A stretch of 61,559 nt of DNA, the filler included, from Sphacelaria rigidula (Eukaryota): NCBI GenBank assembly GCA_964200075.2. It is 8 parts of 8 records of this genome, joined end to end, with 100 filler letters (N's around TTAATTAATTAA, not from the genome) between each part and the next. Parts side by side here need not be neighbours in the genome. Positions count along the whole stretch, not along the records: positions 46,246 to 53,852 come from CAXNAA020014117.1; 7 more parts are not named here. One strand, written 5' to 3'. Below the pieces are notes generated by a model. That model was not told where the DNA came from. It worked only from the letters and a program-made list of their open reading frames with translations, and made no database searches. A program made the position numbers and the translations under genes. Shown one piece after another: positions 7,609 through 55,095 of the stretch (within the stretch, counting starts at the first letter, position 1; each line of letters opens with the position of its first letter).

Positions 7609-7708
7609 NNNNNNNNNNNNNNNNNNNNNNNNNNNNNNNNNNNNNNNNNNNNTTAATTAATTAANNNNNNNNNNNNNNNNNNNNNNNNNNNNNNNNNNNN
7701 NNNNNNNN
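7609..7708. other. Artificial contig linker N44-TTAATTAATTAA-N44 (also 15317-15416, 23025-23124, 30732-30831, 38439-38538, 46146-46245, 53853-53952)
   Basis: Identical 100-nt spacer with all-frame stop linker recurring every 7707-7708 nt. Confidence 0.98.
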
Positions 7709-45873: not shown

Positions 45874-46318
45874 ACCTACATCATCCTGTGCGGCTGCCGC
45901 CGCAGCCTCAACCTGCTCGGGTTGGGTGCAGTGTATACATGCAGAGGCGCAGTATCGGCGGCGAGAGAAGGGATCAAAGAACGCGAGGAGGCGAATTTCC
46001 CCGACGCGTAACTCGAGGCGGGGGAAGCGAAAATAGTCATGCCCCATTTCACTCGGTGAAACGTTGGTGAACAAGGGGCCCTACAGACTGGAAAACGGTG
46101 TTCACCCCCCCAATTTCCCGAAAACCTCATTTTGGGCGACCGGGGNNNNNNNNNNNNNNNNNNNNNNNNNNNNNNNNNNNNNNNNNNNNTTAATTAATTA
46201 ANNNNNNNNNNNNNNNNNNNNNNNNNNNNNNNNNNNNNNNNNNNNTTGATCACAACGCCAGGTGCAATGTGTGATGCATAGTGTTGTCCAAGCTGGTGAT
46301 GTACGAAGTACACTCCAA

Positions 46319-46609
46319 GCCGGTCGCCCCGGTGGCTCAGTTGGTAACCTTGAAACCCTCTTGACAGTTGGATCGTGGGTCCAATTCTCGGAGCGATCTG
46401 GGATTTCTTCCCACACTAGCCCAACAGTGGAGAGCGACTATGTCGTGGGTACACAAAATTCGACTTAATGGTCGAAGAGAGACAGGGGCTGCTGAACCCC
46501 TCTCGCGATAAAAAAATTAAGGCAAGCACCGCAGAAGGAAGGTGGGGTACTCTAAACAAATAAAATAAAAAAGCTCATGTGTTGACCGTCCTCCTGTGTG
46601 ACCCCGGCC

Positions 46610-46656
<47 letters not shown>
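46319..46656 (+). mobile_element. tRNA-derived SINE with (CA)n tail
   Basis: GCCGGTCGCCCCGGTGGCTCAGTTGGTAACC A-box head, degenerate B box, ends in (CA)n. Confidence 0.88.
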
Positions 46657-46659
<3 letters not shown>

Positions 46660-47371
46660 GCGACCACTTTTCTGTAATACTTCGATCGAATCAGAGCATA
46701 CACCTTGAATCTGCGCACTGCGCACTGTGAACACACTCCTCATTATTCAATAACAAACACGCCAAACCTCGAACCTACGCGATAAATACAAATGCGAGCT
46801 CGCTTTCTCTGTTTTCCAAACTAAACAAGGGAAAACGTCGGCAGCATACGTCCGATTTTTTCAGTGGTGGATGCCCAACAGAGTCTGATCTTCAGACCTC
46901 TATCAGAGGGCTGCTTTTTTACCGACCGAGCGTGTCCAGTTCCCTTACTTGTACACGTGGGCTTGCAGGGATGGGGCGTGGGAAAAGTCTAAAGGATTTG
47001 CAGCCTTCGCGGGTAATTTTGCTTCCCGTTCTCTTCACTCTTGGAGGAGAGCACTGGGGCGGCCACTGGTGATGCAGCAGCCGCTGTACCAGACACAGCA
47101 GCTACAGACTGTTCGGCAGAAACGTCCACCGCAGACTCTGCGGTATGGCCAGCGACAAAGCCGAAAGTCTGAAGGCTCATGTTGCAGACCGGTGTGGTTC
47201 CCAGCAAGCGAATTCGCAGTGCGCAGATGACGATGTGCGTAGTTTGTGGGGTATGGGGTGTGAGGTGTGGGGTGTGTGGTGGGCGATGGGGGTGGTGGGC
47301 GGTAGGCGGAGGCATGCGAAAAAGGGGGGGAAATATGCTGCCTACCACCCACCCCCGGTAAAGAAACAAAA

Positions 47372-47521
47372 TGTCGACAGTATCGATATCCGATATCCGA
47401 TATCGATATTGATACGTATCGACAAATATCGGCTTGGAAACCGGCGATCTCGATACGATTTACCGTATCGACGATAGTCATCGAAATCGTACCGATTTTC
47501 GATATCCGATCTCCAACACTG
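47372..47521. mobile_element. hAT-like MITE terminus (ATCGAT/GATATC-rich subterminal repeats ending CCAACACTG)
   Basis: Dense short palindromic motifs and a CAGTGTTGG-type end. Confidence 0.5.
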
Positions 47522-48089
47522 GTGTGCAGCATAGCTTTACGCTGAGTGCCAATCGCATACTACCAATCGGAGTGGACGTAACTACAGCACGGTCGCAAGC
47601 TTTTGCGTCTCAACCCTCGAGAGATTCCTCCAGTTTCATGACCCATGTTCTCTCGTTCACTATTCCAGACTGTTCACATGGGCAGGGCCAGTAAGTGACC
47701 TTGCCGAAACTGCGGTGTGGCAAATTACTGCGGAGAAACCCAACCCAATCTCGCGAGAGGAATGCAAGTAAACAACAAATAGCACCACTCTTGAATTTGC
47801 GCCGACCACCCGAAGTCTATGATGCGCGAGTGCGGGGAGATACGGTAGATAACACCCATTTATTCGCCGGCGAACATACCCACAACCATCGGGTTATGTA
47901 GACGACAAGCGTTTCGAGCCATATTTCCTCCCAAGTACGCGAAAGCCACATCGCTGAAAAGATTTTCACTGAAAATAAAAGATTTTTCCCTGAGAAAAAG
48001 CAAGGTTGAACAACACAACGACAGGGGGTGCTATACTCCGTTACTCTTGGGTTGCCGTACTGTAGTAGTACCTTTCAGTAAGCATTCAC

Positions 48090-48212
48090 CTGGCCATTTG
48101 CGCGAAGGAACGCGAATATCTCATGAAGTCGAGCCAGCGATCGTTCGTGAAGTGGTCCTGAGTACAGTTCCTCCAGCGCAGCCACGGCCTTCTCCTCTCC
48201 CGGGCCAGACAT
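48090..48212 (-). CDS. Putative first exon of an unknown gene divergent from SDE2
   Basis: ATG-initiated 41 codons MSGPGEEKAVAALEELYSGPLHERSLARLHEIFAFLRANGQ ending in CAG|GTGAAT; an Ala/Ser-rich open segment at ~47040-47170 may be a later exon. Confidence 0.5.
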
Positions 48213-48709
48213 CACAACCACGTTCCAACTATGATGATCATTTGAAAAACACGTTTTTTTTTGCGGTCACTTTCGCCTTCCCGATTCAGACCCGCGACAT
48301 GAACGGCACTTCCCTGACGGCGAGGCCCTGACGCAGGAAGATAGGTGCCGAATATACCCTATTCTATATATTTGATTATATATTTTACGGAAATGCCATA
48401 TCAAAAGCTTCTTGCATTAGAGTGGGAAGGATGAAAAGACGTGTCAACAACACCTAAAGAATGTATCAACGTTCACGTGTGCGTTTTGGAAGAAGACAAC
48501 AGTATACGCGATTTGACGGCATTCACTGCCGAACACCGGGCAGGCAGCACGCCTTGCTCTTTGGCTTGTCCGCTGTTGTTGCATCGCACCGTCGAGGTAA
48601 ATAGTACGTCATAAAGAGGTTCTACAACCTACGACGTATTGGTATTCATAAGGTAAATTCGACAACGGTTTCGCAAATCAATCTAAGGTGGAAGCAAAGA
48701 ACGAGCATC
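48213..48709. promoter_or_regulatory. Probable bidirectional promoter region
   Basis: Short interval without recognised repeats between head-to-head ATGs (inference from position). Confidence 0.4.
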
Positions 48710-49051
48710 ATGGCCCAAGCTTCTATGGGGCATTGGGATACCCACACCGGCAAACAGCAACAGCATCAACCACGCCAACACTTGGTAGAGTTTCAGGGCC
48801 GGACACTATGCATATCCACCGAAAAACAGCCCACAACAAGTGGTGTAGTCTTGCAGTCTTTATATGCAGCACTGCACGTTTCTAAGACCGCCGTAGATGC
48901 GCTGGAAGCACCATGGCGCCTCATGTGCTGCGGGAGGTTTCTGGCACCGGAGGACAGGGTGCCTGCCCTGAGTGTACTGAGGGTGTGGACGGGCGGGCTG
49001 AAGGGCGGCAAAGGAGGGTTTGGAGCTATGCTGAGGGCAATGGCTAAGCAG
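48710..49051 (+). CDS. SDE2: SDE2 exon 1: ubiquitin-like N-terminal domain and GG^KGGFG cleavage motif
   Basis: ...VLRVWTGGLKGGKGGFGAMLRAMAKQ; splices in phase 0 to 52088. Confidence 0.93.
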
Positions 49052-49575
49052 GCAAGCAAGAGATTGGAGTTCGCAAACGCTTTTTCAATTGGTTCTTGTG
49101 TTCAGAGTTGTTGACGCCGATATTTAACTTTGAGGCGAAAGTTTTCCCCTCTATGACGGGGAATAACACCCTCTGGCAAGGATGCTGCAGCGCATGACAG
49201 TATATACTTACCCTCCCGCTTCTGCTTTGCAATACTTCAATTCAGATGATGATACTTTAAGGGGAAGATGGCATCGAAAACGTGGCCGTGGAGAATTTTC
49301 CCTGTGCAGATCGTTCCCTCTCATTAATCGTAGTGGCATCCGCATCTGTCGAAGTCACTGAGCGCAAGATGTTGAATGCTCTCAACTGCTCATCAGTATT
49401 GTACACACCACATGATCTGGAAAGCTCAGAATTTGAACTCAGCTTTTGAATTTTTTCGTTCAGAGCACTGTGAAAAGAGATTGTGTGCATGTGTATGGGG
49501 AGTGGGCATTCTTCCATAAATGCAAACACCGGCAGATAGTACTATCGGATTCTGCTTACCACCTACTTTCATTTA

Positions 49576-50721
49576 CGAGCTGGGCCAGCCAACAATGGGT
49601 AATTTTCTCGTTCAGGCGACGCACTGCGTAAAATTAGGAGTTGGACGCTGAAAAATCGACAGCAGCTTATTACGATCGACATGCAGAACATCACGAGAGC
49701 AGCATAGAACAAAAAAAAAAAACGATCGCGATTTGAAATTTCAGCAAAAACAAGATAACGTCATTGGACCGAGTCTAACGGGAGCCGTTCAAAATTCCTG
49801 TTCCAAACTGCTTTTTTTGGCCCTTCTTCGTCGTTTCAAGCCTGAAAAGAGGGCTAGGCAGATGTTGACGCCTTGGAATGACTGACACTACTAAATGAGA
49901 CCGTTCGAGGACAACTTTGCATTTCCCGCTGGCTGCATTTTTGGCCAAACACGGATTTTGAATGAAAAACGGCCAAGCGATGATTAAACAGCGGGAAATT
50001 TTCATCACCTGATCGATTTTCACTAAAAATCCGTGTTTGTCCTGATTTGGCCAAGAGCAAAGGTGCGGCCAGCGGGAAATGCAAAGTTGCCCTGGAACGG
50101 TCTCAACGAGTAGAGCAAGTCATCCCAAGGCGTGAACATCCGCCTAGCCCTCTTTTCGGGCGTAAATCGACGGAGAAGGGCCCAAAAGGCAGTTTTCGAC
50201 AGGAATTTGAACGGCTCCCATTAGATTTGGCCTTCGTCCAGGAAAAAAATGAGAATCTGCAGCTGCTCGCGCGATGTATCATTTCCTTTGGTACTTAAGG
50301 TCTTCCGTGAAATTTCAGCTCAAGAGTCGTCGAATTGGGCGGGGCCTCGCACTTTTCTTGTGACGCAGCCGGGCCCCCATGATTCAAGAGGAGACTCAAT
50401 CATGGAGGTCATGAGTTCGAATCCCGACAGATTTTTTTTTTTATCCGTCCTCGAGGTAATATATTATGCAGCACATTTTTCTTTCTTTGTTTTTTCATTC
50501 AGCGGCGGTGCCATGTGTTACCAGCTTGGTCTTCACTTCACAGTGATATGCTTACATCGGGGGAGACCGGGAAAGCTTTGGTGTGGACAACCCTTGGCCG
50601 CTTTAATCCTTGGACCGCGAGATTAGTCTTTCTGGTTCATGCATACTTTTTTCACTTGAAATTGATGCCGATTCAACCGAAGACTAACCTCGCGGTCTAA
50701 GGGTTGAGCTGGCCCAGCTCG
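49576..50721. mobile_element. TA-flanked non-autonomous DNA transposon family C in SDE2 intron 1; contains a fold-back, a B-box and a nested TTAA MITE
   Basis: TA|CGAGCTGGGCCAGC...GCTGGCCCAGCTCG|TA (14-bp perfect TIR). Confidence 0.82.
49774..50225. repeat. Long imperfect fold-back (~175-bp arms)
   Basis: TCTAACGGGAGCCGTTCAAAATTCCTG...CAGGAATTTGAACGGCTCCCATTAGA; related sequence at ~29810-30060. Confidence 0.9.
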
Positions 50722-51036
50722 TATGTACATCCATCACAGATCTCAAATGGCGAGGACGTCCAGTCATCGCGGACCCTTGTCATCAACTTCTTCATGGCAA
50801 CTCCTAAGCCGCTAGCTCACATCTGAAGCAAGCGCTTGCATAGGCTTGTCGCTGGAAGCTGTGGACAACGTTTGGCCGCTTTAAGCTGGCCCAGCTCGTA
50901 TGTACATCCATCACAGGTCTCTAATGGCGAGGACATCCAGTCATCGCAGACCCTTGTCATTTACTTCATCATGGCAACTCCTAAGCCGCTAGCTCACATC
51001 TGAAGCAAGCACTCACGTAGGCTTGTCGCTGGAAGC
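50582..51036 (+). repeat. Tandem duplication (~178-bp unit); first unit carries the TTAA MITE 50607-50703
   Basis: Units 50582-50859 and 50860-51036 are colinear apart from the insertion. Confidence 0.92.
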
Positions 51037-52087
51037 TTCATCAGTGACACCATCGCGGCCATTTCTTGAAGTCGCTACTTGATATCTCGGGCGAACACAC
51101 ACAGGAACTTGCCGCCGACAGCTGAAACCGACCATACTCCGCAAACCTTGACCCAGATACATGTAGCAGACACACTTCCATATCGAAATAATCCCTCGAC
51201 TCGGTATCTACAAACGCATGCCGCGACATACCATTTGCTCAACGTCGGATCTCCCATCCCTGCACAATGACACTCTTCAGAAGCGCCGGGCGGGCGGACA
51301 AGACCGATGAAAACCATGGCAGACCATGACTCACCGCTAGAACTGCCTGCACGTGACCAAAAAGCTGCCCGAAAATTGAGACCGCCAATCAGAATGTATT
51401 ATAACCCGTCTACCTACACAGTCCCTAGCGCTTCAGCTGACAATCGCTGTCATCTATGGAGCTACAGGCAACATCGTTCCATGCACGGACGGGCCCGCAT
51501 CTGTTCTGCATATCCATCTCTAACGAATAATCACTTACATGTAAAATGTAATTCATCGGCAATTCCAAATTTTCCCAGCTCGCGAACGTTTCCCCCTTAA
51601 TGAGAAATGAAACACCTCGCTTTATTTCCGTGAGGTGATGTATGACTCTAGGGCTCACGACACGTAGCGGTGAGATTACCTGCTTGAATGTCCCAAGAAA
51701 TTTTGAAAACGAAAAAGTGCAATCCCCCCAAGGTATTTACTACATCAGATCTCAGGTTTTATGCGACATCTTCCGGCGACTGACTGCATTCTTCCACACC
51801 ACAATAACTGCGTTTATATTATCCTCTTGAAACTCGCTCTATTCGGGCCCACAGCTATTCTCGTTTTTGGTCTTTTCATCTCTTGTTTTACCAGCACCTT
51901 TGGCTGTCAAGAGTTTATACGCTTTGGCGCGGGGCATCCGCTCGTGCACCAAAATCAAGCTGCAATGTGTCCGCACCGGCTCAAAAATGGACCCAGAAAT
52001 AAGTTGCCACAATCCGACAAGTCTCAAAGCTTTGTTGTGTCTATTTTTAAGTGAAACCAACTCTTTTTTTCCCGTCGACACGTACAG

Positions 52088-52194
52088 GCGGGAGCAAAGC
52101 CTACGACGGACTTTGGTGCTTGTCGAGACCTCCAAGGGCGGCGACTGAGACACGTCAACGATGAAGTGCGCCTTCAAAAGTGGCAGGAAGCAAG
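52088..52194 (+). CDS. SDE2: SDE2 exon 2
   Basis: AGAKPTTDFGACRDLQGRRLRHVNDEVRLQKWQEA matches the SDE2 motif TT...ACRDL.GRRLR.VN; tacag acceptor, gtacac donor. Confidence 0.95.
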
Positions 52195-52429
52195 GTACAC
52201 TTTCGCAGATCACGGAGACAAAAGTGGGGGCCGGTTGCGAGTGTTCTTCGCGTTTTTTTCGCGTCATGTTTTTGGCGTCGCTTTCGCTCCTCCTACAGCA
52301 TCCGGAAGTGTCGCAGATTCTCTCTGATTCCAGTGTACACTGTTTGTACTGCTCGGTTCTCTGTTCTGTTGAGCTGATTTGGTCACTGGACACCTGAGTG
52401 TTGTTAGTCTATTAATACCCAGGGGAAAA

Positions 52430-52801
52430 ATAGTGTGTGTTGTGTGTTGTGTTGTCGTTCCATTTATTCTGGGCGCTAGTCTGCACCTTTCGGTATATGT
52501 GGGCGCACCAGCCGGGGTCACACAGGAGAAAATTCAACACAGGAGTTCCTTATTTTTTATTTGTTTTTAGGATCCCACCTTCCTTCTGCGGTGATTGCCT
52601 TTATTTTTTATCGCGAGAAGGGTTCAGCAGTCCATTTCCCTCGTCGACCGTTAGGTCGAATTCTGTGCACCCACGACATGGTCGCTCTCCACCGTTGGGC
52701 ATGTTGTGAGAAAAAATCCTAGATCGCTCCAGGAATTGAACCCCACTACTCAACCATCAGAGGGTTTCGAGGTTACCAATTGAGCCACCGGGGCGACCGG
52801 C
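52430..52801 (-). mobile_element. tRNA-derived SINE, full length, in SDE2 intron 2
   Basis: Minus strand: A box TGGCTCAATTGGT, B box GGTTCAATTCC, (CA/CAA)n tail. Confidence 0.9.
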
Positions 52802-52908
52802 TGAAACAGTATTGTATCTAAACTTGTGCATTTTGTACACGTCCTTCGTGCGCAATTTGTTGGTGCCATGTTTGCTGACTCGTGCTTGACGAAAAGTATG
52901 CACCGCTC

Positions 52909-53374
52909 AGACCTACTTTTATGGCTACGGATCTCGATTTGTACAAATATGAGGATTTCAGCCTGTCTACAGGCGATTTTCTCGCGTGGATTGATTTTTT
53001 GGACCCCAGTCCGTTGGGCGATGTATTGCGGCTAGCTGTGAGCAAACCAGATCACTTCTCCGATTCTCTGGACGTTTACTTTTGGTATACCACCTATCTG
53101 CTCAAATCGGGAGACTCCCGCATCTCCCCCGACTTTTTTTTTTTATCGGGGAAAAATCGGGGGAGATGTGGGAGTGTCCCGATTTAAAGGTGATGTATCG
53201 AAAGTCAACGACCAGAAAATCGGAGAATTGATCTGGTTTGCTCACAGCTAGCCGAAAAACATTACCCAACGGACTGGGGTCCGAGAAATCAATCCACGAG
53301 AGAAGACCGCTTATAGACGGGCTGAAATCCCCATATTTGTACAAATCGAGATTCCTTGCCATAAAAGTGGGTCT
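52909..53374. repeat. Long palindrome/fold-back element (~220-bp arms, ~25-nt loop) in SDE2 intron 2
   Basis: AGACCTACTTTTATGGC..CTCGATTTGTACAAATATG... mirrored by ...CATATTTGTACAAATCGAG..GCCATAAAAGTGGGTCT. Confidence 0.93.
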
Positions 53375-53500
53375 CACGCAGATCATTTTCCGTTCAATCT
53401 ACTCCAGCTTTTCATGGTGTGCCTCGCTAGGTCACACATTTTACCTCACCTCTACCTCTCCTTTTTTCCCCCTCTGCCTATCCGACTAACCACACCCCAG

Positions 53501-53741
53501 AGAGGCGGAGCGACGAGGCGAAAAAGTAGAGGAGACGAAGACGCAGTCCGGCATTGAAAACTGGCACTTGGGAGTACCAACGTGGGCAGAGGGGGCGAAA
53601 CCATCGTACATGAAGAACCGCCGCAAGACCGTGTTATGCCAGCAATGGTTGGATGCCCGTAAGGATAGGAAGGCTCCCGATGGCGCACCGCCCTGGTGGG
53701 GTTGTCCCAGGGGCCGCGGATGTGATTTCGCCCACGGCAAA
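53501..53741 (+). CDS. SDE2: SDE2 exon 3, encoding a CCCH-type zinc finger; gene is cut by the contig end
   Basis: CTAAC branch point, cccag acceptor, phase matches exon 2, gtgagt donor; RKTVLC-x21-C-x5-C-x3-HG. Confidence 0.85.
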
Positions 53742-55095
53742 GTGAGTGCTTCAGGTTTAGCGGGTGCTCGCTTTCGCAAGGGAGGGGGTGTACTCATGAT
53801 CATGCATGCCGTAGTCATCAGACCATTGACCTCGCATCCCTACAATGCCGGGNNNNNNNNNNNNNNNNNNNNNNNNNNNNNNNNNNNNNNNNNNNNTTAA
53901 TTAATTAANNNNNNNNNNNNNNNNNNNNNNNNNNNNNNNNNNNNNNNNNNNNGCGAAAACCCGGCGTGCTCCGTCCCGGCTTTGTAGGGATGCGAGGTCA
54001 ATGGTCTGATGACTATGACATGCATGATCATGAGTACACCCCCCCCAAACCCGTGCTCCGTCTCGAAAGGGATGCGTGGTCAATGGTCGAACGACTAAGG
54101 CAGGCAACGAATGAGTACGCCCTCCCCCCCAAAACCATGAGCCACTTTTTGTTTTGGGAGGGGGGGGGGGCTATCCCAGAGAGTGTTCATACCGCCAGTC
54201 AATTATTTTCACCTCTCTTTTGATCGTTTTCTCTCCATTTTCTCGGGTTTCCTCTCTGGCACATTTGTTTATTTTGAAACATCTATCGTGTGGATAATGA
54301 CCACCACTGAATCTCTCGGGGGATCAGTTCATGTGTGACACCTCAATCAATCGATCAATAAATACATCCAAGTGTTGATATAATCCCCGTTTTTTTATCT
54401 CCTCATCTTTCATTTTTTTTTCCAAACTCCCTCCTCCCTCCCTTGGGACGAATCCGTAGGTCTTGACATATCACCAACCTATTTCTACCCGAGTGCGTGC
54501 CTTACTAATAGTACATTTTGGTATCGCGATTTGGACCATGACTATTATAGCGCTCTCGAACCGCGCAGACTTCCGTCACATTTTCTGCGCTACTGAGTCA
54601 TGCTACAATAGGGGACGAGAGCATTCGCTTCCACGAAAAGAAAAGGGCTCATAGGTGTGTTATACGACCTAAACCACTCGCGTTGCGCTTGCATTTTGGT
54701 AAAAATGGTGTCGAGCAGTATAAATGAGCGTCTGTTATCGGTAACAAGTGCGTTCGAACAACCGCTGCTGCTTTCAACGACGATTTGATGTGGAATTTCG
54801 TGGAAGACATGGCCCGAAATACCCCCCCCCCTCCCGACCATAGCACGACTCAGTTTGCCCTAGTTTGGACCCTATTAGGCGATGTTTCAGTGTATGCGTG
54901 CTTTCAGTGTAGACCATCATGTTGAGGTTTTTACAGGGCTCACAGGCCCAAGCGCCGCCCAGGTTACGCGCACCGTGGGCAACATGAGGTTTGGCTCAGG
55001 CACCGATTTGAGCTAAAACAAAGCACACTTTTGCCTGGGGAACAAAAATATATATCCCTCTCGCTCGAGGTATCTTAGGCCGCATTCGGGTGGGG

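Follow-up and report, generated by a model that had tools for sequence, protein, structure and literature searches.

A stramenopile-wide SDE2 architecture with an unusually spaced CCCH-type zinc finger, seen in a gene of the brown alga Sphacelaria rigidula

A locus in the genome of the brown alga Sphacelaria rigidula (NCBI GenBank assembly GCA_964200075.2) raises the question of whether the SDE2 gene found there truly carries a CCCH-type zinc finger behind its SDE2 domain and, if so, where such a protein comes from and what its finger would do. The locus lies at positions 48710 to 53741 of a stretch of 61,559 nucleotides (nt), hereafter the window, and an earlier reading made from the sequence alone, here called the original prediction, had proposed that three exons join in frame to give SDE2 fused to an atypical finger. 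The answer developed below is that the region comprises the first three exons of a brown-alga SDE2 orthologue, spliced as first proposed, and that it belongs to a real and old form of SDE2, spread lineage-wide, whose finger has an unusual spacing. The gene is real and expressed; its first intron is of the GC-AG type, and the DNA piece on which it lies ends before the gene does. Its features, all on the plus strand, are the following.

48710..49051 (+): exon 1, coding part, with the start ATG at 48710; besides a predicted divergent ubiquitin-like domain (UBL, residues 1-100), it encodes the G-G^K processing site and the beginning of the SDE2 domain (basis: translation and RNA-type contigs)
49004-49024 (+): processing site G-G-K-G-G-F-G, with the two Gly codons at 49004-49009 and the Lys codon at 49010-49012
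49052..52087 (+): intron 1, 3036 nt, GC-AG, donor GCAAGC and acceptor ..ACAG (basis: contig joint and splice dinucleotides)
52088..52194 (+): exon 2, core of the SDE2 domain including A-C-R-D-L-x-G-R-R-L-R (basis: Pfam PF22782 and contigs)
52195..53500 (+): intron 2, 1306 nt, GT-AG (basis: joint in four of four runs)
53501..53741 (+): exon 3, end of the SDE2-domain helix, Trp/Pro motif and CCCH finger
53547..53594 (+): Trp/Pro motif SGIENWHLGVPTWAEG, conserved form S-G-I-x-x-W-x-L-x-x-P-x-W-A-E-G
53619..53741 (+): single CCCH finger, C-x21-C-x5-C-x3-H, with a basic K-T-x-L-C lead-in (K-T-V-L-C here)
53637-53639, 53703-53705, 53721-53723 and 53733-53735 (+): codons of the four ligands, Cys, Cys, Cys and His

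The joining of these exons can be followed in public sequencing runs. Eight of them match the stretch, none recorded as RNA, and four small ones (X1-X4) were guessed to be RNA. Contigs were examined from X1, X2, X3 and X8, which come from two studies; small contigs of X1 recur unchanged in X8, so that these two may be a single data set deposited under two entries. The contigs are intron-less, and for this reason the runs are treated as RNA; they were used for the joints only and not for the level of expression. In each of the four runs a single contig of 1894-2077 nt bridges all three exons, covering 48650/72-49048, 52085-52192 and 53499-53742, and continues for a further 1164-1326 nt beyond the sequence of the window. 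The second joint, 52192>53499, gives a GT..AG intron with exon ends 52194/53501 when the cut is moved by +2, and is the same in all four runs. The first, 49048>52085, has five ambiguous letters and six possible cuts in every run, and exon 1 was set to end at 49051, with a GC-AG intron, because this is the sole canonical-type choice among the six. Joined in this way, exons 1 to 3 form 690 nt, or 230 codons, without a stop, and exon 3 ends in phase 0 with the donor GTGAGT following at 53742. A T>G variant at 52120, present in X2 and X3, is synonymous when the codon is read from the sequence. The in-frame join of 48710-49051, 52088-52194 and 53501-53741, together with the junction 52194/53501 looked for in RNA, is thus borne out by the contigs.

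The same frame aligns as a single collinear piece across both junctions with the orthologue of Ectocarpus (P0009, 79.6% over 225 columns), and it is likewise collinear with those of Pylaiella (P0007, 79.7% over 212 columns), Tribonema (P0011, 57.2% over 201 columns) and Phytophthora (P0162, 49.5% over 218 columns), and with P0004 (82.6% over 207 columns).

Regarding the identity of the protein, exon 2 alone matches the Pfam SDE2 domain PF22782 at profile positions 19-50 with 41.4 bits, where the gathering cut-off is 26.4 (E 2.8e-10), and the end of exon 1 (residues 99-111) falls on profile positions 1-13. This match above the cut-off upholds the claim of SDE2 orthology, and the features quoted with that claim, namely the start ATG, G-G-K-G-G-F-G, the exon 2 motif C-R-D-L-Q-G-R-R-L-R and the Cys/His codons, were all found in place. 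The processing site is invariant at G115, G116, K117, G118 and G119 of the full-length alignment A1, and the motif is likewise invariant in alignment A4; in the model of the Ectocarpus orthologue the site is flexible, with a predicted local distance difference test score (pLDDT) below 50 at residues 114-116. Exon 1 gave no match at E <= 1 to the Pfam UBL families. The same Ectocarpus model shows, at residues 29-109, a strand-strand-helix-strand arrangement in blocks mostly above 84 pLDDT. A search with domain profiles, proposed as a check of the original prediction, succeeds for the SDE2 domain, gives no Pfam match for the UBL, and leaves the Pfam zf-CCCH profile below its cut-off, as detailed further on.

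The finger itself was examined in an alignment of 147 rows, in which ligand counts are given over non-gap rows and spacing counts over 134 rows. The four ligands are conserved, in order, in 144/145, 136/138, 136/138 and 131/135 rows, and all four occur together in 129 of 134. The x5 and x3 spacings are invariant in the 134 rows. The first spacing is x21 in 80 of them, x22 in 29, x23-24 in 13 and between 26 and 77 residues in 10, with one row each at x14 (P0123, a fragment in which the last two ligands are missing) and at x9 (P0142). Several residues of the long loop are conserved as well: W49 (142/143), R53 (136/143), P59 (134/140) and W66 (128/136), and further A52, A62, P63 and G67. In addition, the lead-in is basic, with K42 in 135 of 144 rows and mostly basic residues at R40/R41, and the residue before the His is mostly aromatic, being F in 108 of 137 rows and Y in another 20. 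Since ligands and loop residues are conserved together across the 147 aligned rows, a chance Cys/His pattern is excluded. The description of the loop as a 13-residue insertion stands in so far as the loop exceeds the conventional x8 by about 13 residues; as an insertion it is less apt, because a long loop is the commonest state in the family and is itself conserved.

The family is tied to ordinary CCCH fingers by P0142, whose nine-residue loop allows a match to the whole Pfam zf-CCCH profile (positions 2-27, 23.7 bits against 20.5). Twelve relatives reach the cut-off of 20.5, 11 of them on the C-terminal half of the profile only. When a profile of the finger region was compared with the PDB, all eight matches at E <= 10 were CCCH fingers, four of them at E < 0.001: two constructs of Roquin-1 (2.1e-5 and 5.9e-4), ZC3H7A (1.3e-4) and an entry named 'C3H1-type domain-containing protein' (4.1e-4), followed by a 'cytoplasmic zinc-finger protein' (0.032), TIS11d (0.042), TTP (0.24) and Unkempt (0.49). 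Conserved ligands and a profile that retrieves CCCH fingers confirm the Cys/His cluster as a real CCCH-related module with a K-T-x-L-C lead-in.

The best solved match, the Roquin-1 finger (8rhs, 4txa), shares the near-identical block G-C-P-R-G-x-x-C-x-F-A-H-x-x-E-E-L and, in a weakly aligned part, a K-T-x-x-C lead-in; its first loop, however, is far shorter, with about five residues between the aligned stretches in 8rhs against the 21 found here. The context differs too, as the Roquin finger sits behind RING and ROQ domains and the one discussed here behind an SDE2 domain. TIS11d and TTP (1rgo, 1m9o) share the K-T-x-L-C lead-in, the C-x5-C-x3-H arrangement and the tail C-x-F-A-H-G-x-x-E-L. Fingers of the TTP family come as two in tandem with C-x8 spacing, whereas a single finger with C-x21 is present here. 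No other Cys-x5-Cys-x3-His stretch was found in five full-length orthologues, and the one second match to a looser C-x4-7-C-x3-H pattern lies within the SPRY part of P0044. The finger would thus work like one finger of the TIS11/TTP type and is not a member of that family, since it lacks the tandem arrangement and has an x21 spacing. It is of CCCH type, and would be expected to bind zinc and RNA.

Structure prediction with AlphaFold2 (AF2) gave a pLDDT of 88-91 for residues 41-80 of the exon 3 product and of 94-96 for the finger of the full-length Ectocarpus orthologue. A helix is predicted straight after the first Cys, and the long loop is predicted to be helical. In the VIA fold comparison over 48161 chains, the two chains at Z >= 2 were both CCCH proteins, Tma46 (7rr5_T; Z 3.1 over 41 aligned residues, root-mean-square deviation 2.5) and, at Z 2.4, TIS11d. 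For the finger of P0009 and its surroundings, the ESM Atlas yielded no match that could be used.

Ahead of the finger, exon 3 encodes the Trp/Pro motif, which reads S-G-I-E-N-W-H-L-G-V-P-T-W-A-E-G in the window. Its key residues are conserved in 127/129 (W21), 134/136 (P26) and 129/135 (W28) non-gap rows, and the corresponding W187, P192 and W194 are invariant in alignment A5, diatoms included, where the motif is kept even without the finger. It is near-invariant across the stramenopile orthologues and has no aligned counterpart in human SDE2.

How far this architecture extends was followed in sequence databases. A phmmer search with exon 3 against 1.84 billion representative proteins returned 140 at E <= 1e-3, of which 91 at E <= 1e-10. 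Of the 146 proteins gathered, 128 were covered by a Pfam scan and 18 were left out; PF22782 is present in 100/128, and PF22782 together with SPRY (PF00622) and SDE2_2C (PF13297) in 49/128, most of the remaining scanned matches being incomplete or shorter. With a profile built from 12 full-length members, 406 proteins were recovered at E <= 1e-5, and among the 120 matches listed all have PF22782 and all but one have SPRY. The whole protein of the orthologues consists of a predicted UBL, SDE2 domain, CCCH finger, SPRY and a SAP-like C-terminus, with two long helices between finger and SPRY, and the first three of these five parts are in the window. The UBL/SDE2/CCCH order of the original prediction therefore holds, and the SPRY and SAP-like parts, which lie outside the window, had been missed.

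The five-part architecture is present in both Bigyra and Gyrista stramenopiles. Among the brown algae it was found in Ectocarpus, Pylaiella, Scytosiphon and Laminaria, and among other ochrophytes in Tribonema, Chrysoparadoxa and Phaeothamnion, as well as in the chrysophytes Pedospumella, Mallomonas, Chlorochromonas and an Ochromonadaceae strain. Further carriers are the labyrinthulid Mucochytrium, the opalozoan Blastocystis and many oomycetes: Phytophthora, Pythium, Globisporangium, Saprolegnia, Aphanomyces, Achlya, Albugo, Bremia, Peronospora, Plasmopara, Hyaloperonospora, Lagenidium and others. Every carrier that has a name is a stramenopile, whereas most metagenomic relatives are nameless; the placement was confirmed for the lineages checked, and the remaining named carriers we take to be stramenopiles as well. 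The finger is absent from the diatoms Nitzschia (P0247) and Epithemia (P0248), whose diatom lineage was confirmed, and from P0249, P0250 and P0252. In these five proteins some 37 residues are cleanly missing, precisely where the finger would stand; the Trp/Pro motif is retained in all of them, as is the SAP-like C-terminus, and SPRY in all except P0252. SDE2 from fungi, one wasp and one rotifer, mostly 244-352 residues long, had PF22782 as its sole domain and no C-x4-7-C-x3-H pattern. The simplest reading under the accepted phylogeny is an old gain of the finger in stramenopiles followed by its loss in diatoms, because both Bigyra and Gyrista carry it and diatoms are ochrophytes. The suggestion of a lineage-specific architecture consequently fails in the narrow sense: it is not peculiar to one algal lineage but is old and stramenopile-wide, with two named diatoms lacking the finger.

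Parts of this architecture have already been seen by automatic annotation, as UniRef labels many oomycete orthologues 'C3H1-type domain-containing protein' and some JGI names are taken from the SDE2 and SPRY domains. No description of SDE2 with a CCCH finger or SPRY was found in the literature searched, judged by title or abstract (supplements not covered), and a word search for such a finger gave no mention in the accessible text of PMC9508853, PMC13572447, PMC13601561 and PMC9399289. The remark that a CCCH finger is unfamiliar in characterised Sde2 proteins agrees with human SDE2 being without it and with the silence of the literature searched, with the reservation that databases flag the finger automatically. 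The architecture is widespread across stramenopiles, and the only descriptions found are automatic database names.

Comparison with human and fission yeast SDE2 (8c6j chain z, 7n99) places the difference in the middle of the protein. Both share with the stramenopile orthologues an N-terminal UBL, predicted in the latter, G-G^K-G-G-F-G, the C-R-D-L-x-G-R-R-L-R core of the SDE2 domain and a SAP-like SDE2_2C C-terminus. The stramenopile protein differs in what separates these last two parts, where the CCCH finger, a pair of long helices and SPRY are inserted. In line with this, the family profile A1 matches human SDE2 (8c6j_z, 451 residues) with an E-value of 1.4e-41 over the end of the UBL with the SDE2 domain and the C-terminus only; the finger/SPRY stretch is unaligned, and the best intervening stretch scores an insignificant 1.9 bits. 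The human protein is described, in the accessible text of PMC9399289, with three conserved domains and with neither a zinc finger nor SPRY. As for the SPRY part, that of DDX1 (4xw3_A, 6e-18) is among the nearer solved matches of the family profile. A SPRY together with a SAP-type helix-loop-helix is also known from hnRNP U / SAF-A, where the order of the domains and the other domains are different.

What the finger would do has to be read against the known roles of SDE2. Cleavage behind the UBL yields a C-terminal product that joins the spliceosome. In the C* complexes of trypanosomatids and human, the N-terminal part of SDE2 is found close to U2/U6 helix I and the C-terminal helix on SYF1, and a role in 3' splice-site choice has been suggested (accessible text of PMC13601561). 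By analogy, the stramenopile protein would be cut by a deubiquitinase after the di-glycine, as in yeast, human and trypanosomatid SDE2; we infer this processing because the site is invariant and lies within a low-confidence linker of the model. The released SDE2-C would then join the late spliceosome, where its N-terminal part would sit close to U2/U6 helix I and SYF1 would bear the C-terminal helix. The finger, directly behind the SDE2 domain, is expected to fold around one zinc ion, with the extra 13 residues forming a short helix and a Pro/Trp-rich return. CCCH fingers of the Roquin, TTP and U2AF35 types contact single-stranded RNA, and the finger described here is expected to do the same, most plausibly with intron RNA between the branch point and the 3' splice site. 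The stramenopile SDE2 would in this way gain a nucleic-acid contact of its own, lacking in opisthokont SDE2. An SDE2 orthologue, processed at its UBL, spliceosomal, and with a zinc-folded finger that touches RNA, is the best explanation of the locus, and we give it a probability of roughly 0.6.

Several points weigh against this explanation. The finger of the window scores below the cut-off of Pfam zf-CCCH (PF00642), with 10.4 bits against 20.5 and an E-value of 0.67, and matches positions 15-27 only. Its x5 loop (P-R-G-x-x) is without an aromatic residue, and in TTP-type fingers an aromatic residue in this loop helps stacking on RNA bases. The first spacing of 21 residues exceeds the widest published CCCH motif, C-X4-15-C-X4-6-C-X3-H, as given in the accessible text of PMC2873481. 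The structural matches are weak, with VIA Z-scores of 3.1 or less and a best Foldseek E-value, for an 80-residue model, of 1.6 to the CPSF30 fingers; the top three Foldseek rows are CCCH and all have E > 1. The low fold scores can be put down to the small size of the domain. Furthermore, five orthologues keep most other parts without a finger, which shows that SDE2 can perform its core role without one. The RNA label of the sequencing runs is a guess, their RNA nature resting on the intron-less contigs, and the binding of zinc and of RNA, including the direct RNA binding that the original prediction saw added, are steps that we infer.

A bolder form of the same explanation, which we offer as tentative and rather doubtful, is that stramenopile SDE2 has become an RNA reader in its own right, reading the intron upstream of the 3' splice site and setting the choice of that site, a task credited in opisthokonts to separate proteins. 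The loop would have expanded into a conserved helix and a Trp/Pro clasp, and the finger would be tethered between the catalytic core and SYF1; diatoms would later have lost it.

Among the rival explanations, the one that survives best, although we consider it unlikely, is that the finger is a structural or protein-binding zinc knuckle which touches no nucleic acid and could, for example, dock together with the Trp/Pro motif on a partner from the spliceosome or the ubiquitin system. The Trp-, Pro- and Ala-rich character of the conserved loop, the x5 loop devoid of an aromatic residue, the adjoining SPRY, a fold for protein interaction, and the diatoms that manage without the finger would all fit such a knuckle; the basic lead-in and the aromatic residue before the His, however, match those of RNA-binding CCCH fingers. 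It is quite improbable that the finger instead serves at replication forks, where it would bind single-stranded DNA (ssDNA) or a fork protein together with the SAP-like C-terminus. Such a role could build on the stramenopile proteins having retained both the SDE2 and the SAP-like domains, and Roquin, ZC3H7A, TIS11d, TTP and Unkempt, which stand among the PDB matches of the finger profile, count against it as RNA binders, as does the fact that all eight of these matches are CCCH fingers. The precedent for a fork role is human SDE2, which acts at forks through an SDE2 domain that binds TIMELESS and a SAP domain that binds ssDNA (accessible text of PMC9399289). An artefact, with exon 3 being part of a different gene or the Cys/His arrangement a product of chance, could appeal to the silence of Pfam on the window's own finger and to the window being an artificial concatenation, but is refuted by the transcript joints (one contig per run over three exons that all lie within one contiguous piece, in all four runs), by conservation of the finger in more than 130 rows, and by the collinear alignment with full-length orthologues over both junctions.

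The explanation of the gene as an SDE2 orthologue with a CCCH-type finger also has to accommodate its sudden end, which is due to the make-up of the window. The relevant feature is the following.

53854..53953 (no strand): run of N's with a six-frame-stop linker; end of the contiguous piece

Identical 12-nt six-frame-stop linkers occur inside seven such runs, at 7653, 15361, 23069, 30776, 38483, 46190 and 53897, and their spacing of 7707-7708 nt divides the window into eight pieces of about 7.6 kb. Features cannot be read across the linkers, as the window is not one contiguous locus. The gene-bearing piece runs to 53853, with all three exons inside it, and the DNA beyond the linker is no continuation of the gene because the pieces are concatenated. 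None of the later exons (coiled coil, SPRY and SAP-like C-terminus) was found in the window by tblastn with P0004, P0007 and P0009, even at an E-value of 50, and this is explained by the piece stopping at 53853, as the linker spacing indicates. Upstream, inspection by eye of 46246-48700 revealed no convincing open reading frame.

The introns and piece ends are rich in repeats. Intron 1 contains an inverted repeat resembling a miniature inverted-repeat transposable element (MITE) at 49814-49943 / 50058-50187, with 130-nt arms of 85% complementarity, and intron 2 a similar MITE-like repeat at 52909-53095 / 53188-53374, with 187-nt arms of 87% complementarity. The summed contig depth is very high, from thousands to about 110000 in all four runs, at 50564-50737, 52478-52825 and 53696-53850, which points to high-copy repeats, one of them around 52478-52825 in intron 2. 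By eye, 52700-52800 looks tRNA-like, with a similar stretch near 46300; tRNA (ARAGORN) and Rfam scans of 46246-53853 reported nothing. Also by eye, 53790-53853 and 53954-54040, on either side of the linker, are reverse complements of each other, and probably represent the same repeat family at two piece ends.

In yeast and human cells, work on SDE2 has dealt with an adaptor whose middle part contains no module for binding nucleic acids. The stramenopile supergroup, which includes brown seaweeds as well as oomycete pathogens of crops, uses instead an SDE2 with a built-in CCCH finger and SPRY. The finger also has a bearing on CCCH proteins in general, since surveys based on C-x4-15-C miss real members of the family, the spacing here being 21. 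If the finger binds RNA, it would mark a point at which SDE2 contacts its substrate in the spliceosome, and it would provide a handle on the choice of 3' splice sites far from the branch point. Should SDE2 indeed be an RNA reader in these organisms, the diatoms, having lost the finger, would offer a natural comparison for the loss of this module.

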